Part shown: positions 1,373-54,466 of the stretch, piece after piece
How positions within the stretch are numbered: position 1 is the first letter of the stretch
Layout of the letters: each line of letters begins with the position of its first letter
From: Fimbriimonadaceae bacterium
GTDB lineage: Bacteria > Armatimonadota > Fimbriimonadia > Fimbriimonadales > Fimbriimonadaceae
Assembly: GCA_963666135.2 (NCBI GenBank)
Contig: CAXXNR010000001.1
Coordinates: forward strand, 1,513,853-1,577,852
DNA: 64,000 nucleotides
Reading direction: 5' to 3'
Notes under the pieces: generated by a model
What the model saw: the letters and a program-made list of their open reading frames with translations, nothing else
What the model was told of the DNA's origin: nothing
The model's database searches: none
Position numbers and translations under genes: made by a program

Positions 1373-2200
1373 ATGAGGATACGCGTGCCGATGGCTCTTG
1401 CCATCTTAGTTGCGACCTACAGGCTGGCCTCAGCCTCATTCCTACCTGATGAAGCCGATCTGCCGAAGACGTTGAAAGACATCCAGCCAGGCACCGGAAA
1501 CGACGTCACCGTTCAGCATTATGTCGACAAAAAGGTTCAACACTACGACGCTGATGTGTATTGTCCCGGAGAGGACGAAAAGATAGGGTCCCTTTCCTTT
1601 GACGCTTCGCCCTACACCGGCAAGTTCGGTCAAAACGGCGCAAACGACTCGTTTATGGGAATGCTGATACGAGGAGGATTTACATTCGATCCTGGGTACC
1701 AAGTTTGCGACGGCTACACGATGCGGTGGCTTCAGTATGTGAACACGTCGAACGAGACGTTCAACGGTGTGGCGCAAGCCGCTAGATCCTTTATCGATGG
1801 TTCGCCGTTGTACCCAGACTTCGCGACTGCCGGAGTTGACGCGCTTCTTTGGGACGCTCCAGGAAGGGGGACCGGTGCGGGCGAATGGTCGAGTATCACC
1901 TGGAGAGCAGAAAGCGCGTTGGTTTGCTACGACGGCAAATCCAGTCTCAAGTACATCGGCTCTTTCTTCTGGGGATTCGACATCGCAACGGCCAACGGCG
2001 TAACATCGGTTACAGGCAGCTATCCAAATGGCTGGAGCCCAGGCCTAACGCAAGGATTCAAGGATCAATTCGGCAAAGATTACCGAGGATGGACTTTGGA
2101 AGAAGGCTGCTGCGCTTGTGTGCCAGGGCCGCTAGCAATCTTGCCGTTCCTAGTTGGTACATCGCTGACGGCATTGCGTCGCAGAAGGTCTGCCCGATGA
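1373..2200 (+). CDS. secreted protein with PEP-CTERM-like C-terminal sorting tail
   Basis: N-terminal signal peptide (MRIRVPMALAILVATYRLASA). The C-terminus, VPGPLAILPFLVGTSLTALRRRRSAR, combines a P-x-P motif, a hydrophobic helix and an Arg cluster. Confidence 0.6.
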   Translation: MRIRVPMALAILVATYRLASASFLPDEADLPKTLKDIQPGTGNDVTVQHYVDKKVQHYDADVYCPGEDEKIGSLSFDASPYTGKFGQNGANDSFMGMLIRGGFTFDPGYQVCDGYTMRWLQYVNTSNETFNGVAQAARSFIDGSPLYPDFATAGVDALLWDAPGRGTGAGEWSSITWRAESALVCYDGKSSLKYIGSFFWGFDIATANGVTSVTGSYPNGWSPGLTQGFKDQFGKDYRGWTLEEGCCACVPGPLAILPFLVGTSLTALRRRRSAR

Positions 2201-2652
2201 AATTTCTGATCGGAGTTGCGGCTATCATCACCTTGATGATGAATTGCAACAAGTCCAGTTCTCATGGGCAGGTGCTCATTGAGATGAGCCAGTGGGGAGG
2301 AATGGAAACTCCGAACCAGGCGAAGACCAGCGTTCTGTATGTAAACGGCACGCTGGTCACGCCAGATCGCACTTCAAAACTTAGTTCTAAGGCTTTAGAG
2401 ACTATCAGGCAGATAGCCGTGTCGTTGACCAGCTCTAATCTCGACTTCAGCCAGGTGGGCGAATTATCAAACAAGGTTCCTGTTGTCGAGGGAGGAACCG
2501 GCAACTACAAGCTCATGGTTCACCAAGACGGCAAGCACGTTACCTTCGTGATTTCGTATCCGGAGCTGTTCCTTGACGATAAAAGACCAGAACTAAAGGC
2601 CGCGGCTCGTGCCGTTCTCAAGATAAGGGAAGCCTTCGCGTCTGCAAACTGA
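2197..2652 (+). CDS. small hypothetical lipoprotein
   Basis: ATG 2197 overlaps the upstream stop (ATGA). MKFLIGVAAIITLMMNC looks like a signal peptide plus lipobox. The 5' part of the longer track ORF 1849-2652 overlaps the preceding gene. Confidence 0.55.
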   Translation: MKFLIGVAAIITLMMNCNKSSSHGQVLIEMSQWGGMETPNQAKTSVLYVNGTLVTPDRTSKLSSKALETIRQIAVSLTSSNLDFSQVGELSNKVPVVEGGTGNYKLMVHQDGKHVTFVISYPELFLDDKRPELKAAARAVLKIREAFASAN

Positions 2653-2667
2653 CTTCGACAATTGGTC

Positions 2668-3198
2668 TTACTCGCCTAATCCTGCGTTCATGATCTCGTC
2701 GGCGACGAAAATGGGAGCCTCAAACCGTACGGCAATCGCTATGGCGTCAGACGGACGCGCGTCAAGTTCGATCTCTTCTTTGCCGTTTGCCAGGTAGACC
2801 TTGGCGTAATAAACTGAATTCCACAGGTCGTCAATCACGACGCGCGTGACGCGGTGGCCCAACCTCTCGAGGATATGCTGCATCAGGTCGTGCGACATGG
2901 GTCGATCCGGCCTTGATCCTTCTATGGGAAGGCTGATAGCCTGGGCCTCATAGGCTCCAATTAGGATCGGTAGCTTGCGGACGCCGTCCGTAAGAAGCAC
3001 AAATCGAGACACGTTGCCAGCGCTCTCGGCTGCGAACACGCCTTCGATGGAGACCTCGATAGGCTCGCCCATGTTGCCCGGCTCATGGTCGGGTTCGTCG
3101 CGGTCGTAGGGGAAAAACGACGGCGGCTCGTTCAGATTGTCGGGTCCATTCGGATCCTCAGGCATAGCATTAAGATACCCGCGAATCATAGGCCTCAA
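2668..3198 (-). CDS. bifunctional nuclease (BFN/DUF151) family protein
   Basis: The segment FVLLTDGVRKLPILIGAYEAQAISLPIEG...RPMSHDLM..IL..LG..V..VVIDDL....YYAKV.L......ELDARPSDAIAIAVRFEAPIFV matches the conserved BFN-domain pattern. Confidence 0.8.
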   Translation of the reverse strand: MRPMIRGYLNAMPEDPNGPDNLNEPPSFFPYDRDEPDHEPGNMGEPIEVSIEGVFAAESAGNVSRFVLLTDGVRKLPILIGAYEAQAISLPIEGSRPDRPMSHDLMQHILERLGHRVTRVVIDDLWNSVYYAKVYLANGKEEIELDARPSDAIAIAVRFEAPIFVADEIMNAGLGE

Positions 3199-3216
3199 GC
3201 CCTTTCACGGGATTGC

Positions 3217-3774
3217 CTAGGCTTCGAAATCAATCGGTTCGCCGATGTTGAACGAATCGAACCGAACCTTCAGTCCCAGCCTCGTCGGCGAACAGGCCAT
3301 CGGTCCAACCTGAACAGGCTCTCCTTCGGGCAAGTAGCACAAACGGACCATGTGCCAGTGTTCGCCATCTGAAGACGCCTGCACAGCCGCAGCATCGCCC
3401 TTCCGAATCAAGCGCACCCAAAACGGTCCATCGCAGGGCCATTCCTGCACCGACCAATCGGAATGTCCTCGGGTAGCCACGACCGAAAAGTGCCTCTTGC
3501 CGCCAAAAAACTCGATGCCGCACTTGATCCAGTTCTCGCTGTCGATGCGCAGCATGAGCCCAGCCTGGTCATAGAGCGCTTCAAACTCCGCGTCAACGCG
3601 CACCGTCGCGGCAAAGTCGCCCTCACGGACCTTAAACCAGAAGTGGCCGTTGTCATGGACGAAACCGTAATGCGTCTTTTGCCAGAAGTCGCCTTGATCC
3701 CCGGTTGCCAGCTCTAGATGGCTGTCGCTCGATGTCCACGAGGGAGGCTCGTTGAACCATTCCATGGTTCGCAC
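3217..3774 (-). CDS. DUF1349 (concanavalin-like, regulation-of-enolase-1-like) protein
   Basis: MEWFNEPPSW...DFWQKTHYGFVHDNGHFWF...YDQAGLMLRIDSENWIKCGIEF is the typical DUF1349 signature. Confidence 0.75.
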   Translation of the reverse strand: MRTMEWFNEPPSWTSSDSHLELATGDQGDFWQKTHYGFVHDNGHFWFKVREGDFAATVRVDAEFEALYDQAGLMLRIDSENWIKCGIEFFGGKRHFSVVATRGHSDWSVQEWPCDGPFWVRLIRKGDAAAVQASSDGEHWHMVRLCYLPEGEPVQVGPMACSPTRLGLKVRFDSFNIGEPIDFEA

Positions 3775-3860
3775 CTTACCTCAAAGCACTAATGAATGAA
3801 CTTGCGCAGAACGAAGGTGATAAATAGAACGGCTTTCATCTATAGTAAGGTCTAAGGAAG

Positions 3861-4313
3861 GTGCATTTGATGTCGGATTCTACGCAAGCGAAGAAGCCAA
3901 GTTTGAACAACTCGGATGTTTATCCCGACGACGTAGTCCTTAAGACTGAGCTAGCCGATGCGTTCGAGCCATTTGAGCTGTGGCGAGAGTCGCTGAAGTC
4001 GGATGATTTCGGCATGGATATCGAATGGCGGTATTACAAAGACGGCGGCTCATGGCTTTGCAAGGCGACGAAGCGCAAGAAGACGGTGTGCTGGCTCTCC
4101 GTTTGGGAAGGGTATTTCAAGATCGGCTTCTACTTCACCGACAAGAATGCAAGCGATATCGAAGTGCTACCGATAAGTCCCGTCGCCAAGGCTGAGTTTG
4201 CGAATGGCAAATACTATGGCAAACTGAAGCATCTTGGTTTCGAAGTTCGAGATGCGAGCGATCTTTCAGACTTGTCAACGGTAATGAAATATAAGATATC
4301 GATTTTACGATAA
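3861..4313 (+). CDS. DUF3788-like hypothetical protein
   Basis: 150-aa ORF. The central WRYYKDGGSWLCKATKRKKTVCWLSVWEGYFKIGFYF resembles the DUF3788 family. Confidence 0.55.
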   Translation: MHLMSDSTQAKKPSLNNSDVYPDDVVLKTELADAFEPFELWRESLKSDDFGMDIEWRYYKDGGSWLCKATKRKKTVCWLSVWEGYFKIGFYFTDKNASDIEVLPISPVAKAEFANGKYYGKLKHLGFEVRDASDLSDLSTVMKYKISILR

Positions 4314-4395
4314 GCCATGATAGGCGCTTTTGCATCAAGGCTGGCTGGTAGCCCCGTCGGCGAAAAGGGTAAAACCGCCTTGTCGTCTGAAATCC

Positions 4396-5541
4396 ATGTC
4401 TAGGTCATCCTTGCGCATAATCCATATCGAAACAGGAAAGCACTGGAGAGGAGCTCAGGTTCAGGTACTTCATACTTTGCTAGGCCAAAAGAAGCTTGGA
4501 CACCATGTAAGCCTCATATGTCCTCCTGGATCAGCGCTGGAGCAAAGAGCCCGAGAGGCTGGCATAGACGTTTACCCTCAACGTTGCAGAATCTCCCTCT
4601 ATGGCTTTGACGTGTTGAAAATGGCAGCCACCATCAGGCGCATCAAACCGGATATTGTCCACCTTCATAGCTCCCATGCCCACAACGTCGGCGGGATGGC
4701 GGCAAGCCTTGCCCGCGTGCCTGCGGTCGTTCTTTCGAGGCGAATGGACACGCCGATTACCCTCTGGCACCACAAACTCAAATACAAAGTGGGCTACGAC
4801 GCGGTGATCGCCATCTCGAAGGGAGTCAAACGCGCGCTGGTGGTTGCCGGAGTCAAAGAAAAGAAGATCGCAGTCGTAAGAAGCGCCATCGAAGACCACT
4901 GGTGGACGGTTCCAGGTAATCGAGACGCTGTCCGTCGTGAACTGAGCTATCAAGATTGCGACGTTGTGGTTGCCGTCATCGCCGCCATCGAGCCGCGAAA
5001 GGGTCAAGCGCTCTTGATCCAAGGCTTGCCGCAAATTCTCGCGAGCACACCTAATGTTAAGGTTCTTCTGGCAGGAAAAGACGACATCAGCCAGTCAGAA
5101 AAGGCTCTCGTACAAGAACTTGGGCTAGAAGGAAAAGTGATGTTCGCAGGATTTCGATCCGACATCAAGGACGTCATCGCGGCCGCCGACATCATCGCTG
5201 CGCCATCCTATCTCGAAGGCCTCGGCGTGTCGATCATGGAAGCAATGGCGTGTGGCAAGCCGATCGTCGCAAGCAATGTCGGCGGCATTCCAGAGAGCGT
5301 CGTGGACGGCGAGACCGGATTGCTTGTTGAGCCAGGCGACGCCGAAGCGCTTGCGAACGCTATCGTGGCATTAGCAAACGATGAAAACCTGAGACAAGAA
5401 ATGGGCCGAAAAGGGCAGCTTCGAGCCCAAGACGACTTCTCGATCGATTCGCTCATCAACGACACCCTTGCTGTGTACTGCCAATTGCTGCGCCTTCCGG
5501 TACCCGAGAGAGAGAAAGCGGCCTCGACCGTCGTAGGGTAA
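4396..5541 (+). CDS. glycosyltransferase family 4 (GT-B)
   Basis: PSYLEGLGVSIMEAMACGKPIVASNVGGIPESVVDGETGLLVEPGD is the GT4 E-x7-E region. I prefer ATG 4396 (MSRSSLRIIHIE) over the TTG at 4330. Confidence 0.85.
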   Translation: MSRSSLRIIHIETGKHWRGAQVQVLHTLLGQKKLGHHVSLICPPGSALEQRAREAGIDVYPQRCRISLYGFDVLKMAATIRRIKPDIVHLHSSHAHNVGGMAASLARVPAVVLSRRMDTPITLWHHKLKYKVGYDAVIAISKGVKRALVVAGVKEKKIAVVRSAIEDHWWTVPGNRDAVRRELSYQDCDVVVAVIAAIEPRKGQALLIQGLPQILASTPNVKVLLAGKDDISQSEKALVQELGLEGKVMFAGFRSDIKDVIAAADIIAAPSYLEGLGVSIMEAMACGKPIVASNVGGIPESVVDGETGLLVEPGDAEALANAIVALANDENLRQEMGRKGQLRAQDDFSIDSLINDTLAVYCQLLRLPVPEREKAASTVVG

Positions 5542-5573
5542 TCCGGTAAATGGGGTAACGTTGCCCCAACGCT

Positions 5574-7607
5574 ATGGAATATCCGCAGACTAAAAGACTC
5601 GATCTCGTTGAAACGCTTCACGGCCGTTCGGTTGCAGACCCCTATCGCTGGCTAGAGGACGATAACTCAAAAGAGACGGCCGAATGGGTAAAAGCTCAGA
5701 ATGCTGTAACGAACTCATATTTAGCCAAGCTGACTGTTCGCGAGGAGCTGAAGGCGCGTCTGACCGAATTGATGAACTACGAACGGTTCAGTCTGCCAAC
5801 CCCGAAGGGCGGCCGGTATTTCTACACCCGCAACGACGGACTGCAGAACCAAGCTGTGGTCTATGTATCCAAAGGTCTCGGTGCAGAAGCTAAGGTGCTC
5901 ATCGACCCGAACAAGTTCTCGGACGACGGCACGGTGGCTCTGTCGGGTTTTGCGATTTCGGACGACGGCAATCTCGCAGCCTATTCGGTATCGAGTGGAG
6001 GATCGGACTGGGTGGAGTGGCACGTCCGCGATGTCGAGACCGGCGAGGATCTACCCGACGTCATTCAGTGGTCGAAGTTCAGCGGGGCGAGCTGGACTCC
6101 CGACGGAAAAGGCTTCTACTACAGCGCATACGACGCGCCTGAAGAGGGCGCTGCGCTCCAGCAGATGAACCAGTTCCAGAAGCTGTACTATCACCGTCTC
6201 GGCACGCCGCAGTCTTCAGATGAGCTTGTCTATGAACGCAAGGATCAGCCGGATTGGGGCTTCGGCGGACATGTGACCGAAAATGGCCGCTATTTGGTCA
6301 TCCACGTCTGGCACGGCACGCATCGTGAGAACCGGCTGTTCTACAAAGACCTGGTTGCGGGCGGCCCAGTTGTCGAACTGTTCAAGGACGCCGATGCCAG
6401 CTACGGCTTGCTTGGCAACGTCGGAACCAGGTTCTTCATTCAAACCGATAGGAACGCGCCGATGGAGCGGATCTTCGCCGTCGACATCGACAATCCTTCG
6501 GCCGAGATCGAGATCCTGCCCGAATCCGATGCGGTGCTTAGCGGGGCAAGCATGGTCGGCGGCAAGCTGTTCGCGACCTATTTGCGCGATGCGCACACCC
6601 AGGTTTGCATCTACTCGCTCGATGGCAAGCTGGAGAAAGAGCTGGAACTGCCGGGAGTCGGCACCGCGGCGGGATTCGGCGGCGAGATGAAGGACGACGA
6701 GACGTTCTTCGCCTACACGAGCTATACCTATCCGACGTCTCTATATCGCTACGACATCAAGACCGGTCGGACCTCGTTATTTAAGAAACCTGACGTCAAG
6801 TTCAACGCTGACGACTATGAGACCAAACAGGTGTTCTATGCAAGCAAGGACGGCACCCGTGTCCCGATGTTCATCACGCACAAGAAGGGTTTGCAGCTTG
6901 ATGGCCAAAATCCGACGCTCTTGGGCGGTTACGGCGGCTTCAACATCCCGATCACACCCGGATTCAACCCGATGGACATCCCATGGCTGGAGCGGGGCGG
7001 AGTTGTCGCAGTCGCATGCCTTCGCGGCGGCGGCGAGTATGGCAAAACCTGGCACGACGGCGGACGCCTGAAGAACAAGCAGAACGTGTTCGACGACTTT
7101 ATCTCGGCAGCCGAGTATCTGATTGCTGAGAAGTACACGTCAACTCCGAGGCTGGCGATCCGTGGCGGAAGCAACGGCGGCCTGCTGGTTGGAGCATGTC
7201 TCACTCAGCGGCCCGATCTTTACGGAGCCTGCGTTCCGTATGTCGGCGTGCTCGACATGCTGCGTTTCCATAAGTTCACGATCGGCTGGGGCTGGTGCTC
7301 GGACTACGGCAACCCGGATGAGGCTGCTGATTTCGAAGTGGTGTACAAGTATTCGCCTTATCACAACGTCAAGGAAGGAACCGCCTATCCGCCGACTCTG
7401 GTGGTAACAGGCGACCACGACGACCGCGTGGTGCCGTTGCACAGCTTCAAGTTCGCTTCGGCCTTGCAGCATGCTCAAAGCGGTCCTGCTCCCGTGCTCA
7501 TCCGTGTTGAAACGCGGGCAGGCCATGGCGCAGGCAAGCCGCTCAGCATGGCAATCGAGGAGATGTCGGACGTCTATGCGTTCGTGATGGACAACCTGAA
7601 GGTGTAA
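5574..7607 (+). CDS. prolyl oligopeptidase (S9A prolyl endopeptidase)
   Basis: N-terminal DPYRWLED, a beta-propeller middle region, a GGSNGGLL nucleophile elbow and a C-terminal DHDDRV...GHG triad region. Confidence 0.9.
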   Translation: MEYPQTKRLDLVETLHGRSVADPYRWLEDDNSKETAEWVKAQNAVTNSYLAKLTVREELKARLTELMNYERFSLPTPKGGRYFYTRNDGLQNQAVVYVSKGLGAEAKVLIDPNKFSDDGTVALSGFAISDDGNLAAYSVSSGGSDWVEWHVRDVETGEDLPDVIQWSKFSGASWTPDGKGFYYSAYDAPEEGAALQQMNQFQKLYYHRLGTPQSSDELVYERKDQPDWGFGGHVTENGRYLVIHVWHGTHRENRLFYKDLVAGGPVVELFKDADASYGLLGNVGTRFFIQTDRNAPMERIFAVDIDNPSAEIEILPESDAVLSGASMVGGKLFATYLRDAHTQVCIYSLDGKLEKELELPGVGTAAGFGGEMKDDETFFAYTSYTYPTSLYRYDIKTGRTSLFKKPDVKFNADDYETKQVFYASKDGTRVPMFITHKKGLQLDGQNPTLLGGYGGFNIPITPGFNPMDIPWLERGGVVAVACLRGGGEYGKTWHDGGRLKNKQNVFDDFISAAEYLIAEKYTSTPRLAIRGGSNGGLLVGACLTQRPDLYGACVPYVGVLDMLRFHKFTIGWGWCSDYGNPDEAADFEVVYKYSPYHNVKEGTAYPPTLVVTGDHDDRVVPLHSFKFASALQHAQSGPAPVLIRVETRAGHGAGKPLSMAIEEMSDVYAFVMDNLKV

Positions 7608-50153: not shown

Positions 50154-52088
50154 CTAGTGTCGGAGGCACCTTCCGAGGGCTTCCACGGCCCAGATCATCG
50201 GGTACAGCTTTTCGGAATACCAGAGTTTAGCGAAATATAACCCTATCGGCTGGGCGTCGTTCAGGCCGTCCCGCTCAATGCACGGAATGAGATACGCAAG
50301 TCCGCTCTCGATCGCTTCTTCAATTTCCCTTTTCGGTTTGAAATATGAGAGGGCAGAAAGGGATAAAGAGGTTTCTTGGAGCATCGAGGGACTCCCGATA
50401 GCGGCTCCCCATCCGCCGTCTACGTTTTGCGCTTTAAGGAGGTAATTGATGCCTTTGTCGGTTGTTTCGTTCCTTTGGATGCTTTCGCCGTAGGCCATCA
50501 GGACGCGGGCTGTGCCGAAAGCGGGATTCTCGTTGTCGCGGGTGAGTTGGCTGCCGAACCACAGGGGCACCCATGAACCGTCGGCTCGCTGGGTCTTGGC
50601 GAGGTAGTCGTAGCCTCGGGCTTTCGCCGTTTCGGCTTTGGAAAAGAGTTCTTTGAGCCCTCTCCCCGACCCTCCCCCATGTGATGGGGGAGGGAGCATT
50701 TCCGATTCTTGCCTGGAACCCCCATCTGTGTTCGCTTCGCTCACACTTCTTCCCCCTGCAAGCAAGGGGAAGATGAGTTTGTTCTTGTCTTCTAGCGACT
50801 GGATCGCCCGTATCGCGTGGGCCGTGATGTCGGCGCAGCTTTGGTCGAAGGGCAGGCGTCCCCAGCCGCGGCAGAACGGAGGCCAGCCGCCGTCTCTGTT
50901 CTGAAGGTTGAGGAGCCAGGTGATACCTTTCTCAATTTGGCCGGTTGGGATGGTCGGACTTGTTAGGCTTCCAGAAAGAACTAGCTGCGCTGCCGAGGTG
51001 TCGTCGCCGTCGGGAACCGAGCCGCTGAGGTCGGTCCACCCCCAGCCGCCGGGAGCTGCGTGAGTGAACGGATGGACGGTCGTTGTTTGGTTCGCCAAGG
51101 TCCACTCGATGGCAGATCGCGGCGGCTCGACTCTGGCTGTTCGCAGTGCGTTGATCGCGCACGACGTCACCCATTGAGCCAGATTCGTGTCAATCGGCCA
51201 CGAACCGTCTTCTCGTTGCTGGCTCCTGAGGAAGATAAGGGCTTTTGCTAGAACGCGGTCAATGGGGGTGCTTTGCCCCCTCCCTAACCCTCCCCCGCCG
51301 AGCGGGAGAGGGGATTTCTCCCTCCCCCATCCTATGGGGGAGGGCTGGGGAGAGGGTTCGTCTTTCCCATCTGAAGTAGGAAGATCGTTGCGAATCGTCA
51401 GCAACGACATCGAGACAAACGCCGTCAGCGGGGTCGCTTCGAGGAAGCCGCCGGACTCAGGCATGATCTGCTGGAGGATGCGAAGCGCTTTCTTTTCCGT
51501 CAACTTCCCAAGAACGGTTTGTCCTCGTTGCTTGTCGATGGCCAATCCGACAGCGATCAACGCAGGCATGGCGTAGCTGACGACTTGGAGCTTTAGCAAG
51601 TTGAACAACTGATAAGGCATCGCGGCCAACGGATAAGGAAGCCTCGGCACGGAAGACCAGCTCACGATGCCCGCAATGGCGCATGTCGTGAGGATCGGCA
51701 CCGAGAACGTGTGGTCCTCGCCGTAGATCTCGTGGATTCCTGCGGCTATATCGTCACCGAGAATGCTTTTAAGGTAGGCGAGCGCCCTTGCATCTTCGAC
51801 ACGACCAGTGATTTTCAACGCAGACAAGACTAAAAGCGTCGTGGATGGATTGCTTAGCGACTTCGGACAGTCACCCCAGCCGCCGTCGGATTTCTGGGTT
51901 TGAATTAGCCACGCCAATCCTCTTTCGATCTTGGGCGAATCTGAAGCATCGCCGTTTAGGTGCAAGGCGATAATCGCCACTGCTCCAGCTAAAGCAGAGG
52001 ACGACAGCTCGCCGACCCAATGGCCATCAGGTGTCAGCTCAGCCATAAGAGCTTCAACGGCAATGTGCAAGGCCTGCTCCGGCGTCAC
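50154..52088 (-). CDS. shc: squalene-hopene cyclase family class II terpene cyclase
   Basis: GGWGWTDLSGSVPDGDDTSAAQLVL carries the DxDDTA-type catalytic motif. Multiple QW-type repeats are present (SDGGWGDC, EDGSWPID, RDGGWPPF, ADGSWVPLWFG, VDGGWGAA), plus DITAHAIRA (compare SHC DVTAHVL). I prefer GTG 52088, which overlaps the upstream stop (GTGA). The upstream 93 codons of the track ORF overlap the radical SAM gene. Confidence 0.8.
   Translation of the reverse strand: MTPEQALHIAVEALMAELTPDGHWVGELSSSALAGAVAIIALHLNGDASDSPKIERGLAWLIQTQKSDGGWGDCPKSLSNPSTTLLVLSALKITGRVEDARALAYLKSILGDDIAAGIHEIYGEDHTFSVPILTTCAIAGIVSWSSVPRLPYPLAAMPYQLFNLLKLQVVSYAMPALIAVGLAIDKQRGQTVLGKLTEKKALRILQQIMPESGGFLEATPLTAFVSMSLLTIRNDLPTSDGKDEPSPQPSPIGWGREKSPLPLGGGGLGRGQSTPIDRVLAKALIFLRSQQREDGSWPIDTNLAQWVTSCAINALRTARVEPPRSAIEWTLANQTTTVHPFTHAAPGGWGWTDLSGSVPDGDDTSAAQLVLSGSLTSPTIPTGQIEKGITWLLNLQNRDGGWPPFCRGWGRLPFDQSCADITAHAIRAIQSLEDKNKLIFPLLAGGRSVSEANTDGGSRQESEMLPPPSHGGGSGRGLKELFSKAETAKARGYDYLAKTQRADGSWVPLWFGSQLTRDNENPAFGTARVLMAYGESIQRNETTDKGINYLLKAQNVDGGWGAAIGSPSMLQETSLSLSALSYFKPKREIEEAIESGLAYLIPCIERDGLNDAQPIGLYFAKLWYSEKLYPMIWAVEALGRCLRH
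50658..50694. repeat. palindromic G/C-homopolymer element inside the cyclase CDS (copy A)
   Basis: CCCTCTCCCCGA-CCCTCCCCCAT-gtg-ATGGGGGAGGG has an 11-bp stem. It is translated in frame as ...LPPPSHGGGSGRG... Confidence 0.75.
51275..51356. repeat. palindromic G/C-homopolymer elements inside the cyclase CDS (copy B, inverted relative to A, plus a second hairpin)
   Basis: CCCTCCCCCAT-cct-ATGGGGGAGGG-CTGGGGAGAGGG together with CCCTCCCCCGCCGAGCGGGAGAGGGG. It is translated in frame as PSPQPSPIGWGREKSPLPLGGGGLGRGQ. Confidence 0.75.
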
Positions 52089-53638
52089 GCTTTCGCCTTC
52101 CTTTGCTTCAGTCGAAACGCCGCGTTCCACCACACAACTTGGCTTTTGCCGATGACCTGAGCGGCCAAACTCCGCGCCGTCGGCACACCTGAACCTTGCT
52201 CGTTGTCCCAGACCAGCTTCGGTACCCACTTGAAGTTCAGTCGGTAAGATTCGATTACGGTTTGCCAGTGAGTTTTGGTCAGACTCGGCAATGGGTCGCT
52301 TTGACCAAGCGGGGCGAGGGCAACAGGAAACACAGACATTCGCTGATCGCTGAGTTCTTGAACCCATCTGAGGCTCTGCCGGGCTTCGTCAGGCGTTTCT
52401 GTTGGAAGCCCGAGGACGATGGAAACCAGGGGATAGAAGCCTGCGCGAATCAAGCGCCTCATCTGCTCCTGGGTGTGCGCGTGCCATTCCTCTGGCGGGC
52501 CTCCGGCCATCTTGGCGCGGCCGCCGTTCCTCGCCAGCAACGGACCGGAAGCCGTCTCAACGCCGATATTGACCCAGACGTACTCGTGCTGCTGGCCTAG
52601 AGTAAGCAATCGGCGGACTTCCAACAGCTCTTGGTCGCTGAACTGGGCGATGGAGCTGACGTTCACGTGGTCGATCTGCATCAGCTTAACAGCTTTGTTT
52701 TCTCTGAGTTTGGTTAGCGTCTTGATGAGCGTTTCTGGTTTGACTTTCGCTCCTGATGAGCCGTAGCGGAAGAAGTCCTCGCTGAGCAAGGAAAGGCTGG
52801 TTTGGCCGCCTTCGAGGTTCTTTACAATATCGCTCTCGATGGTTTCGATCGGCAAGTGGCACATCGGGGTATGGGCGATGGTGCAGAACTCGCAACCCCA
52901 TCCGCAGCCGCGGCTCATCTCGACGGCGCCCATCGTGGCAGCTGCATTGATGGCTGGGATGTCGACTGGTTGCTCGCCCTTGACGGTTCCTAAGCCTTGG
53001 CAGGTCTCAATAATCTGATTGATGATGGAAGCAATGTTGCCTTCGCAGTACCCGTCGACGACGGTGAGTTGGGCGTTCTTTTGCAAGCGTTGCAGAATCC
53101 CCAAGGTTTTTGCCGGCAAGGTGCCGGCGCTCCCAGCTATCTCATTTGGACGTACCGGGTTATCTATCTCTTGCGCGATCTGCCACGCTCCCGGTCCGCC
53201 GATGACGACTTGGGCGTTAGGAGCTTTCTTGAAAGCAGACAACAGAACCTGTTCGAAAAACACCTGAGGCCAGATGCGGCCGCCCGCGATGGCAACCATC
53301 GTCGATGAGTTCATGCCCTTGCCCAGCGGTTCGCCGGTAGCGATGCCGATGATCTTCGTTTCCGGCCCAATCGCATCTACAAGGCGGTCCGGATGGCAGA
53401 CACACACCTCATGTCCAGCGTGGACGAGTGCCGATTCAATGCGCCGCAAACCCAAAGGCGCGACTTTGGCAGGCAACGGATTGGGTCTTGGAACCGGCAT
53501 CAATAGGTTTTCGAGAATGAACCTTGGCGTCGATGTCGTCTGGCTGGCGGCAACCATGGCGTCGAACAAGCAGGCGTAGTCGGCCATCAGCAGACGGTCT
53601 GCCGTGAGAACGATTTGGTGGCCGCCTTTAGTCGCCAT
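52085..53638 (-). CDS. radical SAM enzyme with N-terminal B12-binding-like (Rossmann) domain
   Basis: EMSRGCGWGCEFCTIAH is a CxxxCxxC radical SAM motif about 240 aa after an N-terminal alpha/beta domain (KIIGIATGEPLG...). 517 aa. Confidence 0.75.
   Translation of the reverse strand: MATKGGHQIVLTADRLLMADYACLFDAMVAASQTTSTPRFILENLLMPVPRPNPLPAKVAPLGLRRIESALVHAGHEVCVCHPDRLVDAIGPETKIIGIATGEPLGKGMNSSTMVAIAGGRIWPQVFFEQVLLSAFKKAPNAQVVIGGPGAWQIAQEIDNPVRPNEIAGSAGTLPAKTLGILQRLQKNAQLTVVDGYCEGNIASIINQIIETCQGLGTVKGEQPVDIPAINAAATMGAVEMSRGCGWGCEFCTIAHTPMCHLPIETIESDIVKNLEGGQTSLSLLSEDFFRYGSSGAKVKPETLIKTLTKLRENKAVKLMQIDHVNVSSIAQFSDQELLEVRRLLTLGQQHEYVWVNIGVETASGPLLARNGGRAKMAGGPPEEWHAHTQEQMRRLIRAGFYPLVSIVLGLPTETPDEARQSLRWVQELSDQRMSVFPVALAPLGQSDPLPSLTKTHWQTVIESYRLNFKWVPKLVWDNEQGSGVPTARSLAAQVIGKSQVVWWNAAFRLKQRKAKA
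53111..53159. repeat. 49-nt hairpin element inside the radical SAM CDS
   Basis: TGCCGGCAAGGTGCCGGCGCTCCCAGCTATCTCATTTGGACGTACCGGG contains a GCCGGCA-agg-TGCCGGC stem. It is translated as VRPNEIAGSAGTLPA. Confidence 0.8.
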
Positions 53639-53647
53639 TGAGGTTCA

Positions 53648-54466
53648 TTATGGCTGAGCGTCGAGCAGGTCGATCAGGGCGTCGATGTCGTCCTTTATCG
53701 GCGATACGGGCGGCGTGTAGGGTCCTCCGCACTCTGGGCAAGTGTCGCCTGATTTCGGAGCAGGTCCAAGCGGAACCATTTTACAGACGGGACAGGCTTG
53801 TTTGGTGCGCAGATAGAACATCCGCTTGGCGTTCGCATCGGGCGACATGTAGAGTCCAGGAGAGCCGCTGATGGCTTGATCCTGAACGTACATTGGGAAT
53901 ATGATTGCGCCTTGGGGGCATATGCGCGAACACGCCGGGCAGCCGGTTTTGCATGAGTCTGGGTTCGTGATGACGACGTGCTGGGCTTCGTCGCGCGTAT
54001 AAACGCCGAAAAGGCAGAACTGCAAGCACTGGCCGCAGTCGTCGCATCGGTCTTTATCGACAACGGGGTGCCAGCGGGGTGCAGGGGCTAAGTCAGATAA
54101 AACGATAGCTCCAGTCTCTGCCGGCAAGGTGCCGGCGCTCCCAGCTATCTCACTTGGATGTACCGGGATCTCCCGCAACAACGCCTCAAAACAACCCTCG
54201 GTAGACTCAAAAGCATCGTATCGAAAACAGGCCGCACTCAATCCGTGGCGGTGCAAAATCCATTGCGTAGGACGCGGATGAAGGTCGGACCAAACCGCCG
54301 AGATCGAACCCAATGAGGCCAGTTGATTCCATAAAGAGCTAGACTCAGGAATGTCGTAAAGCGATGGTGCCAAAACGACCCGAAAACCGGCAAAAAGCAA
54401 ACGATCGGCAAGTTCGCGAACTCGATCTTCGTCTATTGAACGGCATAAAACAACGGTGGCACTCAT
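53648..54466 (-). CDS. 2x[4Fe-4S] ferredoxin-domain protein with N-terminal alpha/beta domain and C-terminal zinc-ribbon
   Basis: CDDCGQCLQFC and CKTGCPACSRICP cluster motifs, then CPVC...CPEC. It is the first gene of the operon, ending 9 nt before the radical SAM gene. Confidence 0.7.
   Translation of the reverse strand: MSATVVLCRSIDEDRVRELADRLLFAGFRVVLAPSLYDIPESSSLWNQLASLGSISAVWSDLHPRPTQWILHRHGLSAACFRYDAFESTEGCFEALLREIPVHPSEIAGSAGTLPAETGAIVLSDLAPAPRWHPVVDKDRCDDCGQCLQFCLFGVYTRDEAQHVVITNPDSCKTGCPACSRICPQGAIIFPMYVQDQAISGSPGLYMSPDANAKRMFYLRTKQACPVCKMVPLGPAPKSGDTCPECGGPYTPPVSPIKDDIDALIDLLDAQP
54119..54167. repeat. 49-nt hairpin element inside the ferredoxin-like CDS (47/49 identical to 53111-53159)
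   Basis: TGCCGGCAAGGTGCCGGCGCTCCCAGCTATCTCACTTGGATGTACCGGG is translated as VHPSEIAGSAGTLPA. A diverged intergenic relative sits at about 37686-37715. Confidence 0.8.

Follow-up and report, generated by a model that had tools for sequence, protein, structure and literature searches.

How did the same G/C-tract palindrome come to lie at two places inside the intact reading frame of an enzyme, and to what kind of repeat does it belong? The question is raised by a gene for a class II terpene cyclase in the genome of a Fimbriimonadaceae bacterium (Armatimonadota), located on the stretch of 64,000 nucleotides analysed here (the window; C1:1513853-1577852 of the 4.62-Mb genome, 54% G+C). The initial annotation of this DNA took the palindromic segments of the gene for selfish DNA of the repetitive extragenic palindrome (REP) or miniature inverted-repeat transposable element (MITE) type, settled in a coding region with the frame preserved. 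Our analysis makes it very probable that members of a genome-wide family of short G/C-tract repeats inserted here in frame, and that these insertions are lineage-specific. Judged by its letters, this family is of the TMECO/PIT/BoxC kind, and consists neither of RAYT-associated REPs nor of Rickettsia palindromic elements (RPEs). The view of a dispersed repeat accommodated in frame is therefore retained.

Two composite inserts in the cyclase

The host protein belongs to the squalene-hopene cyclase (SHC) family and is not a canonical SHC. Pfam recognizes SQHop_cyclase_N and SQHop_cyclase_C, and the acid motif DGDDT at residues 360-364 preserves the DxDD signature of the family. The AlphaFold model, built on a 13-sequence alignment, reaches a predicted template-modelling score (pTM) of 0.80. 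In Foldseek this model gives template-modelling (TM) scores of 0.70-0.71 against squalene-hopene cyclase (1SQC/2SQC) and 0.64 against drimenyl diphosphate synthase, with 7XQ4 among the matches, in line with the beta-gamma double alpha-barrel fold of the family. Sequence similarity to solved SHC is low and comes in pieces (E 4e-23). The GTG start of the open reading frame (ORF) is the same start as annotated in close orthologues. Gene context was judged from ORFs; the order radical SAM protein, cyclase, DUF116-polyprenyl synthase and prenyltransferase is kept on orthologous contigs.

The hairpin CCCTCCCCCAT-N3-ATGGGGGAGGG, which defines type A, occurs with a perfect 11-bp stem at 50670-50694 and 51320-51344, and gives 0 matches in 100 shuffles of the window. 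Each copy has an extra arm, CCCTCTCCCC, which is on the + strand for the first (50658-50667) and on the - strand for the second (51347-51356); the two type A units are thus oppositely oriented. A second hairpin type, CCCTCCCCCGCCGAGCGGGAGAGGG, occupies 51288-51312 and represents type B, defined as CCCTCCCCCGC-N3-4-GCGGGAGAGGG. The encoded Pro/Gly/Ser peptides are PSPQPSPIGWGREKSPLPLGGGGLGRG (residues 245-271) and LPPPSHGGGSGRG (residues 465-477). On all these points, from the two copies in an intact frame of 644 codons to their orientation, the second hairpin and both peptides, the initial annotation was accurate.

The modules are arranged as two inserts, called A and B (Table 1), which together hold three type A/B hairpins with perfect or near-perfect stems. 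The type B motif of insert A contains two G blocks in perfect mirror repeat, and it forms with the neighbouring type A motif an inverted pair. Watson-Crick folding only, as calculated here, predicts that this pair forms a three-way junction as a single strand, with energies of -30.4 kcal/mol (z -3.3) for the sense strand and -30.6 kcal/mol (z -3.7) for the + strand. Within insert B, the spacer between the type A motif and the type C element may be a decayed type B hairpin, as suggested by comparison by eye with the composite of the P0003 orthologue described below. Four of the six reading frames are open in each element, so no special coding adaptation is necessary.

Both inserts had been expected between QW repeats, probably on surface loops. 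In the cyclase model, the predicted local distance difference test (pLDDT) falls below 50 at residues 237-272 and 436-475, stretches lying between helices 219-235/275-290 and 419-447/473-499. A QW-type motif follows directly after each insert (ALIFLRSQQREDGSW; YLAKTQRADGSW), the insert just preceding the helix that bears it. The model thus agrees with that expectation and supports the placement of the inserts in tolerant inter-helix surface loops.

Table 1. Modules of the cyclase inserts, their host gene and two further genes carrying repeats (window positions, except those preceded by C1)
Feature	Position	Strand	Description
Host ORF, SHC-family class II terpene cyclase	50154-52088	-	GTG start, 644 codons, DGDDT intact
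Insert B (site 1), whole	50658-50774	-	39 codons, almost entirely repeat modules
Type A short motif	50658-50694	-	sense: CCCTCCCCC-ATCACAT-GGGGGAGGG-TCG-GGGAGAGGG; encodes PPPSHGGGSGRG
Spacer in insert B	50695-50714	-	20 nt, no other genomic copy
Type C element	50715-50774	-	complete, 60 nt: ATCTTCCCCTTGCTTGCAGGGGGAAG-AAGT-GTGAGCGAAGCGAAC-ACAGATGGGGGTTCC; encodes IFPLLAGGRSVSEANTDGGS
Insert A (site 2), whole	51276-51356	-/+	81 nt, 27 codons, inverted pair type B + type A
Type B motif	51276-51312	-	sense: CCCTCTCCC-GCTCGGC-GGGGGAGGG-TTA-GGGAGGGGG; encodes SPLPLGGGGLGRG
Type A short motif	51320-51356	+	CCCTCCCCC-ATCCTAT-GGGGGAGGG-CTG-GGGAGAGGG; read on the sense strand encodes PSPQPSPIGWGR
Extra piece beside insert A	51357-51383	-	27 nt (LPTSDGKDE), acquired along with the type A motif; present once in the genome
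mnmE gene	C1:57637-59148	-	carries an in-frame insert of 55 residues between G4 (NKAD) and G5 (SA) motifs of the G domain
LamG-domain protein	C1:1099685-1104706	-	1673 residues, secreted; type B hairpin at C1:1103310

A dispersed family depleted from genes

The type A hairpin is present genome-wide in 16 exact and 21 one-mismatch copies, a mirrored control pattern giving 0; it has 0 copies in the 60 relatives searched. A looser search of the genome retrieved about 52 hairpins of types A and B. Each of them possesses an extra arm, the connection being either 2-3 nt long or a 19-nt linker with GTGAGCGAAGCGAAC in it. Type C is built as CCCCTTG..CAAGGGGGAAG-linker-GAAGGGGGTTC; at least 12 copies related to the type C element of the cyclase were counted in the rest of the genome. 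Inverted pairs of B and A are found at 51276-51356 of the window, at C2:2446075-2446140 and in mnmE.

Six of the 52 hairpins lie deep inside an ORF (at least 60 codons from its ends): the cyclase has three of them, mnmE two and the gene of a LamG-domain protein one. The remaining 46 are located outside genes or at their ends. Since ORFs of at least 200 aa span about 84% of the genome (a rough estimate), the family is depleted from genes. Many copies sit just 3' of stop codons, some of them then followed by a T run, and in intergenic DNA different repeat families cluster as mosaics. The genome-wide count thus reveals a dispersed and mostly extragenic repeat.

A type A unit and a type B unit, separated by 98 nt of unique sequence, make up the insert of mnmE, and both are read in the same frame as in the cyclase (PSPQPSPMRWGR...SPLPPRGGGLGRGQ). 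Neither the 98-nt spacer nor the 27-nt extra piece beside insert A has another copy in the genome. A 95%-identical MnmE orthologue, P0122, from the sample of the cyclase orthologue P0002, lacks the 55 residues and keeps a short remnant. In the LamG-domain protein, the hairpin is in frame between domains (..SLSRLTGEGQGGG..).

Changing module combinations in orthologous cyclases

Two syntenic orthologues of 62-64% identity, P0004 and P0005 (573 and 569 aa vs 644), are without both inserts, which are also absent from all more distant homologues (56% identity or lower). The closest orthologues, P0002 (79% identical) and P0003 (77%), carry other module combinations at the same two loops. Loop A of both contains only the type B unit, in a shorter version; the type A motif 51320-51356 and the 27-nt piece are missing, and this type A motif is thus specific to the lineage studied here. 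Loop B is occupied by a B-A composite in P0003, and by a type C hairpin (hairpin-only version) with a reversed type B unit in P0002. In the outgroup P0006, loop B shows a decayed type C-like stretch, VFPLLAEPESGS, which is either old, with two later losses, or the product of two gains at a single hot spot. The segments are therefore lineage-specific, absent at 62-64% identity and beyond and differing among the three closest proteins.

The tree obtained is (P0006,((P0004,P0005),(P0003,(own,P0002)))). At the two loops, modules accreted step by step, a type B unit took the place of type A at one position, and decay is visible as well as in-frame deletions such as the loss of a 21-nt linker in P0002. 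Homologous inserts exist in the orthologous gene of independent metagenome assemblies (Logan SRR28229722, JGI 3300021167). Among the three insert-bearing lineages (own, P0002 and P0003), the ratio of nonsynonymous to synonymous substitution rates (dN/dS) of the cyclase core is 0.11-0.15, indicating purifying selection; the gene therefore kept its function once the first insertions had occurred. The intact frame, together with this pattern of selection, leads us to infer that the inserts are translated, and they are probably roughly neutral.

In 40 relatives of the same family or order, no clear cyclase orthologue was detected, only weak N-terminal matches in frames of 630-670 aa. The terpenoid operon thus has a patchy distribution in the lineage and may have been acquired horizontally. 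Closer orthologues were also sought in metagenome contigs, where the best reached at most 43% identity. This search did yield a cyclase homologue of 40% identity, L125 (soil metagenome contig Ga0066903_100079841, 1900-2020), with a motif pair in frame. There an inverted pair, CCCCCCACCC-TAA-CCCTCCCCC..GGGGGGAGGG and its mirror copy, stands at a third, C-terminal loop, and it represents an independent invasion of the same enzyme family.

Kinship with TMECO and distance from REPs, RPEs and MITEs

TMECO elements have the consensus CCCTCNCCC-N3-6-GGGNGAGGG-N3-GGGNGAGGG, one stem mismatch being allowed, and count among the G/C-rich intrastrand triplex motifs of class II (Holder et al. 2015, PMC4666352, where earlier triplex-motif work by Hoyne and Maher is cited). 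Their second loops are TTA or CCG, and inverted pairs of two subtypes are frequent. They number 3610 copies in 262 proteobacterial genomes, are always intergenic in E. coli K-12 MG1655, and their loci in E. coli are hot spots of small local changes (PMC4666352).

The type A units of the cyclase (50694->50658 and 51320-51356) fit this consensus in their three blocks and in loop 2. Their loop 1 has 7 nt, one above the published range, or 3 nt if the unit is taken as an 11-bp stem. In type B, the third block GGGAGGGGG is an exact mirror of block 2, and the second loop, TTA, is that of TMECO type A. Each repeat unit is composed of a C-rich block, a complementary G-rich block and a second G-rich block mirroring the first; this mirror symmetry, needed for a purine-motif triplex, is read from sequence only. 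Further features in common, besides the three-block architecture, the near-identical letters and the frequent inverted pairs of two subtypes, are a copy number in the tens per genome, strong conservation of the consensus, patchy occurrence in related genomes and local instability around the copies.

There are also differences. TMECO has been described as a proteobacterial family and, for E. coli K-12 MG1655, as intergenic throughout, whereas the present host belongs to Armatimonadota and six hairpins are in frame in three genes; the intergenic location holds for most copies here and fails for those of the cyclase. Loop 1 measures 7-8 nt (or 3-4 nt with an 11-bp stem) instead of 3-6 nt, long variants have a 19-nt structured second loop (GTGAGCGAAGCGAAC), and type C is built of CCCCTT/AAGGGG blocks.

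Outside this lineage, the exact hairpin with the same extra arms (e.g. ccccctccctaaCCCTCCCCC...GGGGGAGGGttagggaggggg) is found in Erwinia, Winslowiella, Nitrospiraceae, Reyranella, Myxococcota, Elusimicrobia and others, and related sequences are found on Azospirillum replicons. The exact 25-nt hairpin with its arms attains dozens of copies in an Erwinia sp. and in many Nitrospiraceae; the longer unit around it differs from lineage to lineage and is specific to each (loci L016-L114). Among 102 copies in other phyla, four intragenic candidates were taken, on inspection by eye, for spurious high-GC ORFs. When phages and plasmids were checked as vectors, we obtained one match to a viral contig, and plasmid matches only in unannotated spacers (Azospirillum, Sphingobium, Aeromonas, Deinococcus). 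A literature search for the literal motif string returned no relevant paper.

RPEs, to which the initial annotation had compared the inserts, are 100-150 bp long, restricted to Rickettsia and intragenic for about half of them (Ogata et al. 2000, summarised in PMC10969869). As an analogy of behaviour, this comparison is sound: palindromes are in frame in unrelated genes (cyclase, MnmE and LamG-domain protein), add a peptide at tolerant, fold-compatible places and also have non-coding copies. Length and host set the present family apart, with units of 37-81 bp of which about 12% are intragenic. REPs with GTAG/CGTC tags have been described inside genes (Di Nocera et al. 2013, PMC3733652), and the REPIN-RAYT system is known as well (Bertels and Rainey 2011, PMC3116915). 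Like REPs and REPINs, our repeats are short palindromes mostly 3' of genes and often inverted dimers; REPs too are sometimes in frame in genes, even twice per gene, adding 20-80 residues. However, no GTAG/CGTC tag exists in the flanks of 18 type A copies or of the type B copies. With bacterial MITEs (ERIC, Correia, BOX; review PMC10969869) they share the nature of small non-autonomous repeats able to make in-frame fusions. The units are indeed palindromic, but no direct repeats were seen at the cyclase, mnmE and L125 junctions, neither a parent insertion sequence nor a transposase partner was found, and the candidate parent would be a nuclease cassette rather than a transposase.

What could copy the repeats

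We know of no explanation given for BoxC/PIT/TMECO motifs since the 1990s. In the present genome, genes encoding a DUF559 (Vsr-like) nuclease are noteworthy by their position. Both such genes, read by eye, lie between triplex-type motifs: for the first, at C1:1137258-1137515, these are C-G-G on the upstream side and C-C-G on the downstream side, and the other, at C2:1877405-1877719, has on both sides type C elements as in the cyclase. Of the 28 DUF559 loci scanned in relatives, 14 have a strict-pattern motif no more than about 300 nt away (12 upstream, 10 downstream, 8 on both sides). Over all 30 DUF559 loci scanned, motif density amounts to 1.61/kb near the gene vs 0.10/kb further away, a 16-fold excess. 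Typical loci, L226 for instance, carry perfect inverted copies on both sides of the gene.

A DUF559 domain was also encountered inside a protein of a relative of the same order (L229; G031:C9:17500-25500, ORF 1588-5823 (-)). There an N6/N4 DNA methyltransferase is split within DPTC/GSGTT by an intein-like insert ending in ..VVHN/C. Pfam gives Intein_splicing (E 5e-5) and a weak Hint_2, both below cut-offs, and a central DUF559 domain (E 1e-28) with a repeat-derived peptide, LTPSQPPPQAGEE, on both sides. This repeat-flanked DUF559 domain would be the endonuclease part of the intein-like insert.

RAYT was considered as the mobilising enzyme and rejected: seven Y1_Tnp matches exist in the genome, and no G/C-tract arm is close to any of them. 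Several of these loci are flanked instead by a GCCGGC-type palindrome, (G/A)TAGCTGGGAGCGCCGGC-N5-GCCGGCAG (e.g. C2:151528), the rest by nothing relevant. This second family, GTAG-tagged, with about 40 copies and unrelated to the G/C-tract repeats, is the true REP of the genome. Copies of it lie at 53123-53149 and 54131-54157 (-) of the window and at C1:1131339, C1:1604774 and C2:1251407. Within the terpenoid operon, the radical SAM and ferredoxin genes include such a copy in frame (..EIAGSAGTLPA..), as do a few other genes of the genome, and the operon holds a large share of the intragenic palindromes of the genome.

One Y1_Tnp domain of RAYT-like character is itself in frame in the ORF of the carbamoyl-phosphate synthase large subunit (C1:1878268-1882602 (+), 1426 residues; Pfam residues 532-607, 32 bits). 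It is located between the first ATP-grasp half and the oligomerisation domain, in a protein with further extra sequence too, and it would be a case of a transposase-like domain apparently read through within an essential enzyme.

Insertion and its alternatives

The family lives chiefly in intergenic DNA just 3' of genes, and we suppose that genic copies normally vanish. Survival in a gene would need a length that is a multiple of three, a stop-free frame and a Pro/Gly/Ser-rich peptide placed in a tolerant loop. The cyclase loops would have been visited repeatedly, new copies settling beside old ones or replacing them, and for this reason the three closest orthologues would differ in their combinations at the same two sites. 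As to the source, the likeliest candidate, which we put forward only tentatively, is a small selfish cassette whose sole gene encodes the DUF559 nuclease, behaving like a homing endonuclease and ending in triplex motifs. BoxC/PIT/TMECO motifs would be the ends of such cassettes and, as solo or paired motifs, their cargo-less, non-autonomous offspring.

Several observations weigh against these proposals. The loop B type A unit, with its CT..CTC flanks and unusual CAC loop, is identical at 42/42 nt between our genome and P0003, on a background of 78.4% nt identity gene-wide, dS of about 0.9 and about 61% in the other insert columns. Plain neutral junk does not predict such identity; re-insertion, conversion or selection on the sequence is needed. 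Selection at the nucleotide level on this conserved unit is, on the sequences compared, the weaker alternative reading. Inspection by eye disclosed no target-site duplications at the junctions in the cyclase, mnmE and L125, and no empty-site/filled-site pair with exact junctions was found. In E. coli, the published work disclosed no link between TMECO and mobile elements, and no known function (PMC4666352). Concerning the cassettes, 14 of the 28 DUF559 loci of relatives are without a strict-pattern motif, the strict pattern missed both loci of the genome itself, and the association of DUF559 with the motif is positional only.

It is possible, though we do not favour it, that no transposition took place. 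A triplex or hairpin would stall replication, template switching or gene conversion would seed copies, and growth would be local. Such a process accords with the hot spots of small local change at TMECO loci of E. coli (PMC4666352), the want of target-site duplications, the mosaics of different families in intergenic DNA and, at the cyclase loops, the accretion, A-to-B replacement, in-frame deletions and decay. It leaves unexplained the first arrival at sites without an earlier copy (mnmE, the LamG-domain protein, L125), as well as the bracketing of DUF559 genes by inverted motif pairs. Moreover, it is compatible with insertion from a genome-wide family, being an alternative for the copying step only.

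A function for the host is improbable. The hairpins would then be kept for their role in DNA or RNA, as sites of pausing, processing or stability of the operon mRNA or as recombination or replication signals, and the peptide would be a by-product. The identity of the 42-nt unit with P0003 in spite of a dS of about 0.9 and the perfect or near-perfect stems of all three type A/B hairpins of the cyclase could be understood in this way. So could the two additional in-frame palindromes of the other family in the operon, where about 5-6 of the dozen or so intragenic elements gather within about 4 kb. Yet no conserved requirement is apparent, since the sister P0002 has a different element at this place and P0004 and P0005 have none, and identity between species is also explicable by conversion or re-insertion from a conserved family consensus. 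Units are found in unrelated genes as well (mnmE, LamG-domain protein) and mostly 3' of genes, and PIT/TMECO elements, when tested, acted neither as promoters nor as terminators, and a stable triplex was not found in vivo (PMC4666352).

That the Pro/Gly/Ser-rich loops are ancestral low-complexity protein, their likeness to intergenic repeats being secondary, is very unlikely and largely refuted. The decayed type C-like stretch of P0006 fits it for that one piece, which may be old or gained twice. Against it stand the absence of the segments from P0004, P0005 and all homologues of 56% identity or lower, their nucleotide-level identity with dozens of non-coding copies, and the same units in an unrelated protein, MnmE, whose 95%-identical orthologue lacks them. 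An assembly or sequencing artefact at G/C-rich palindromes hardly deserves consideration, the inserts recurring in the independent assemblies cited above and the frame remaining open.

Significance

Read-through of palindromic repeats in frame has precedents in Rickettsia RPEs and in intragenic REPs (PMC10969869, PMC3733652). What is new here is the presence of the TMECO/PIT/BoxC kind in a new phylum and inside genes. Triplex-motif repeats in genes of Armatimonadota, including that of a housekeeping GTPase, widen the host range and the known consequences of this family, and the case adds a clear example of selfish DNA tolerated inside genes. In practice, it also calls for caution in annotation and in work on cyclases that relies on alignments.

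The two protein loops offer dated, stepwise snapshots of the accretion, replacement and decay of inserts, which help to understand selfish DNA as a source of loop length and of low-complexity protein sequence. With the positional link to DUF559, the old question of what spreads BoxC/PIT/TMECO becomes testable at the bench. If the proposed origin is true, DUF559 cassettes, like the solo ends derived from them, can insert into reading frames and leave these intact, and the cyclase loops record their repeated visits.

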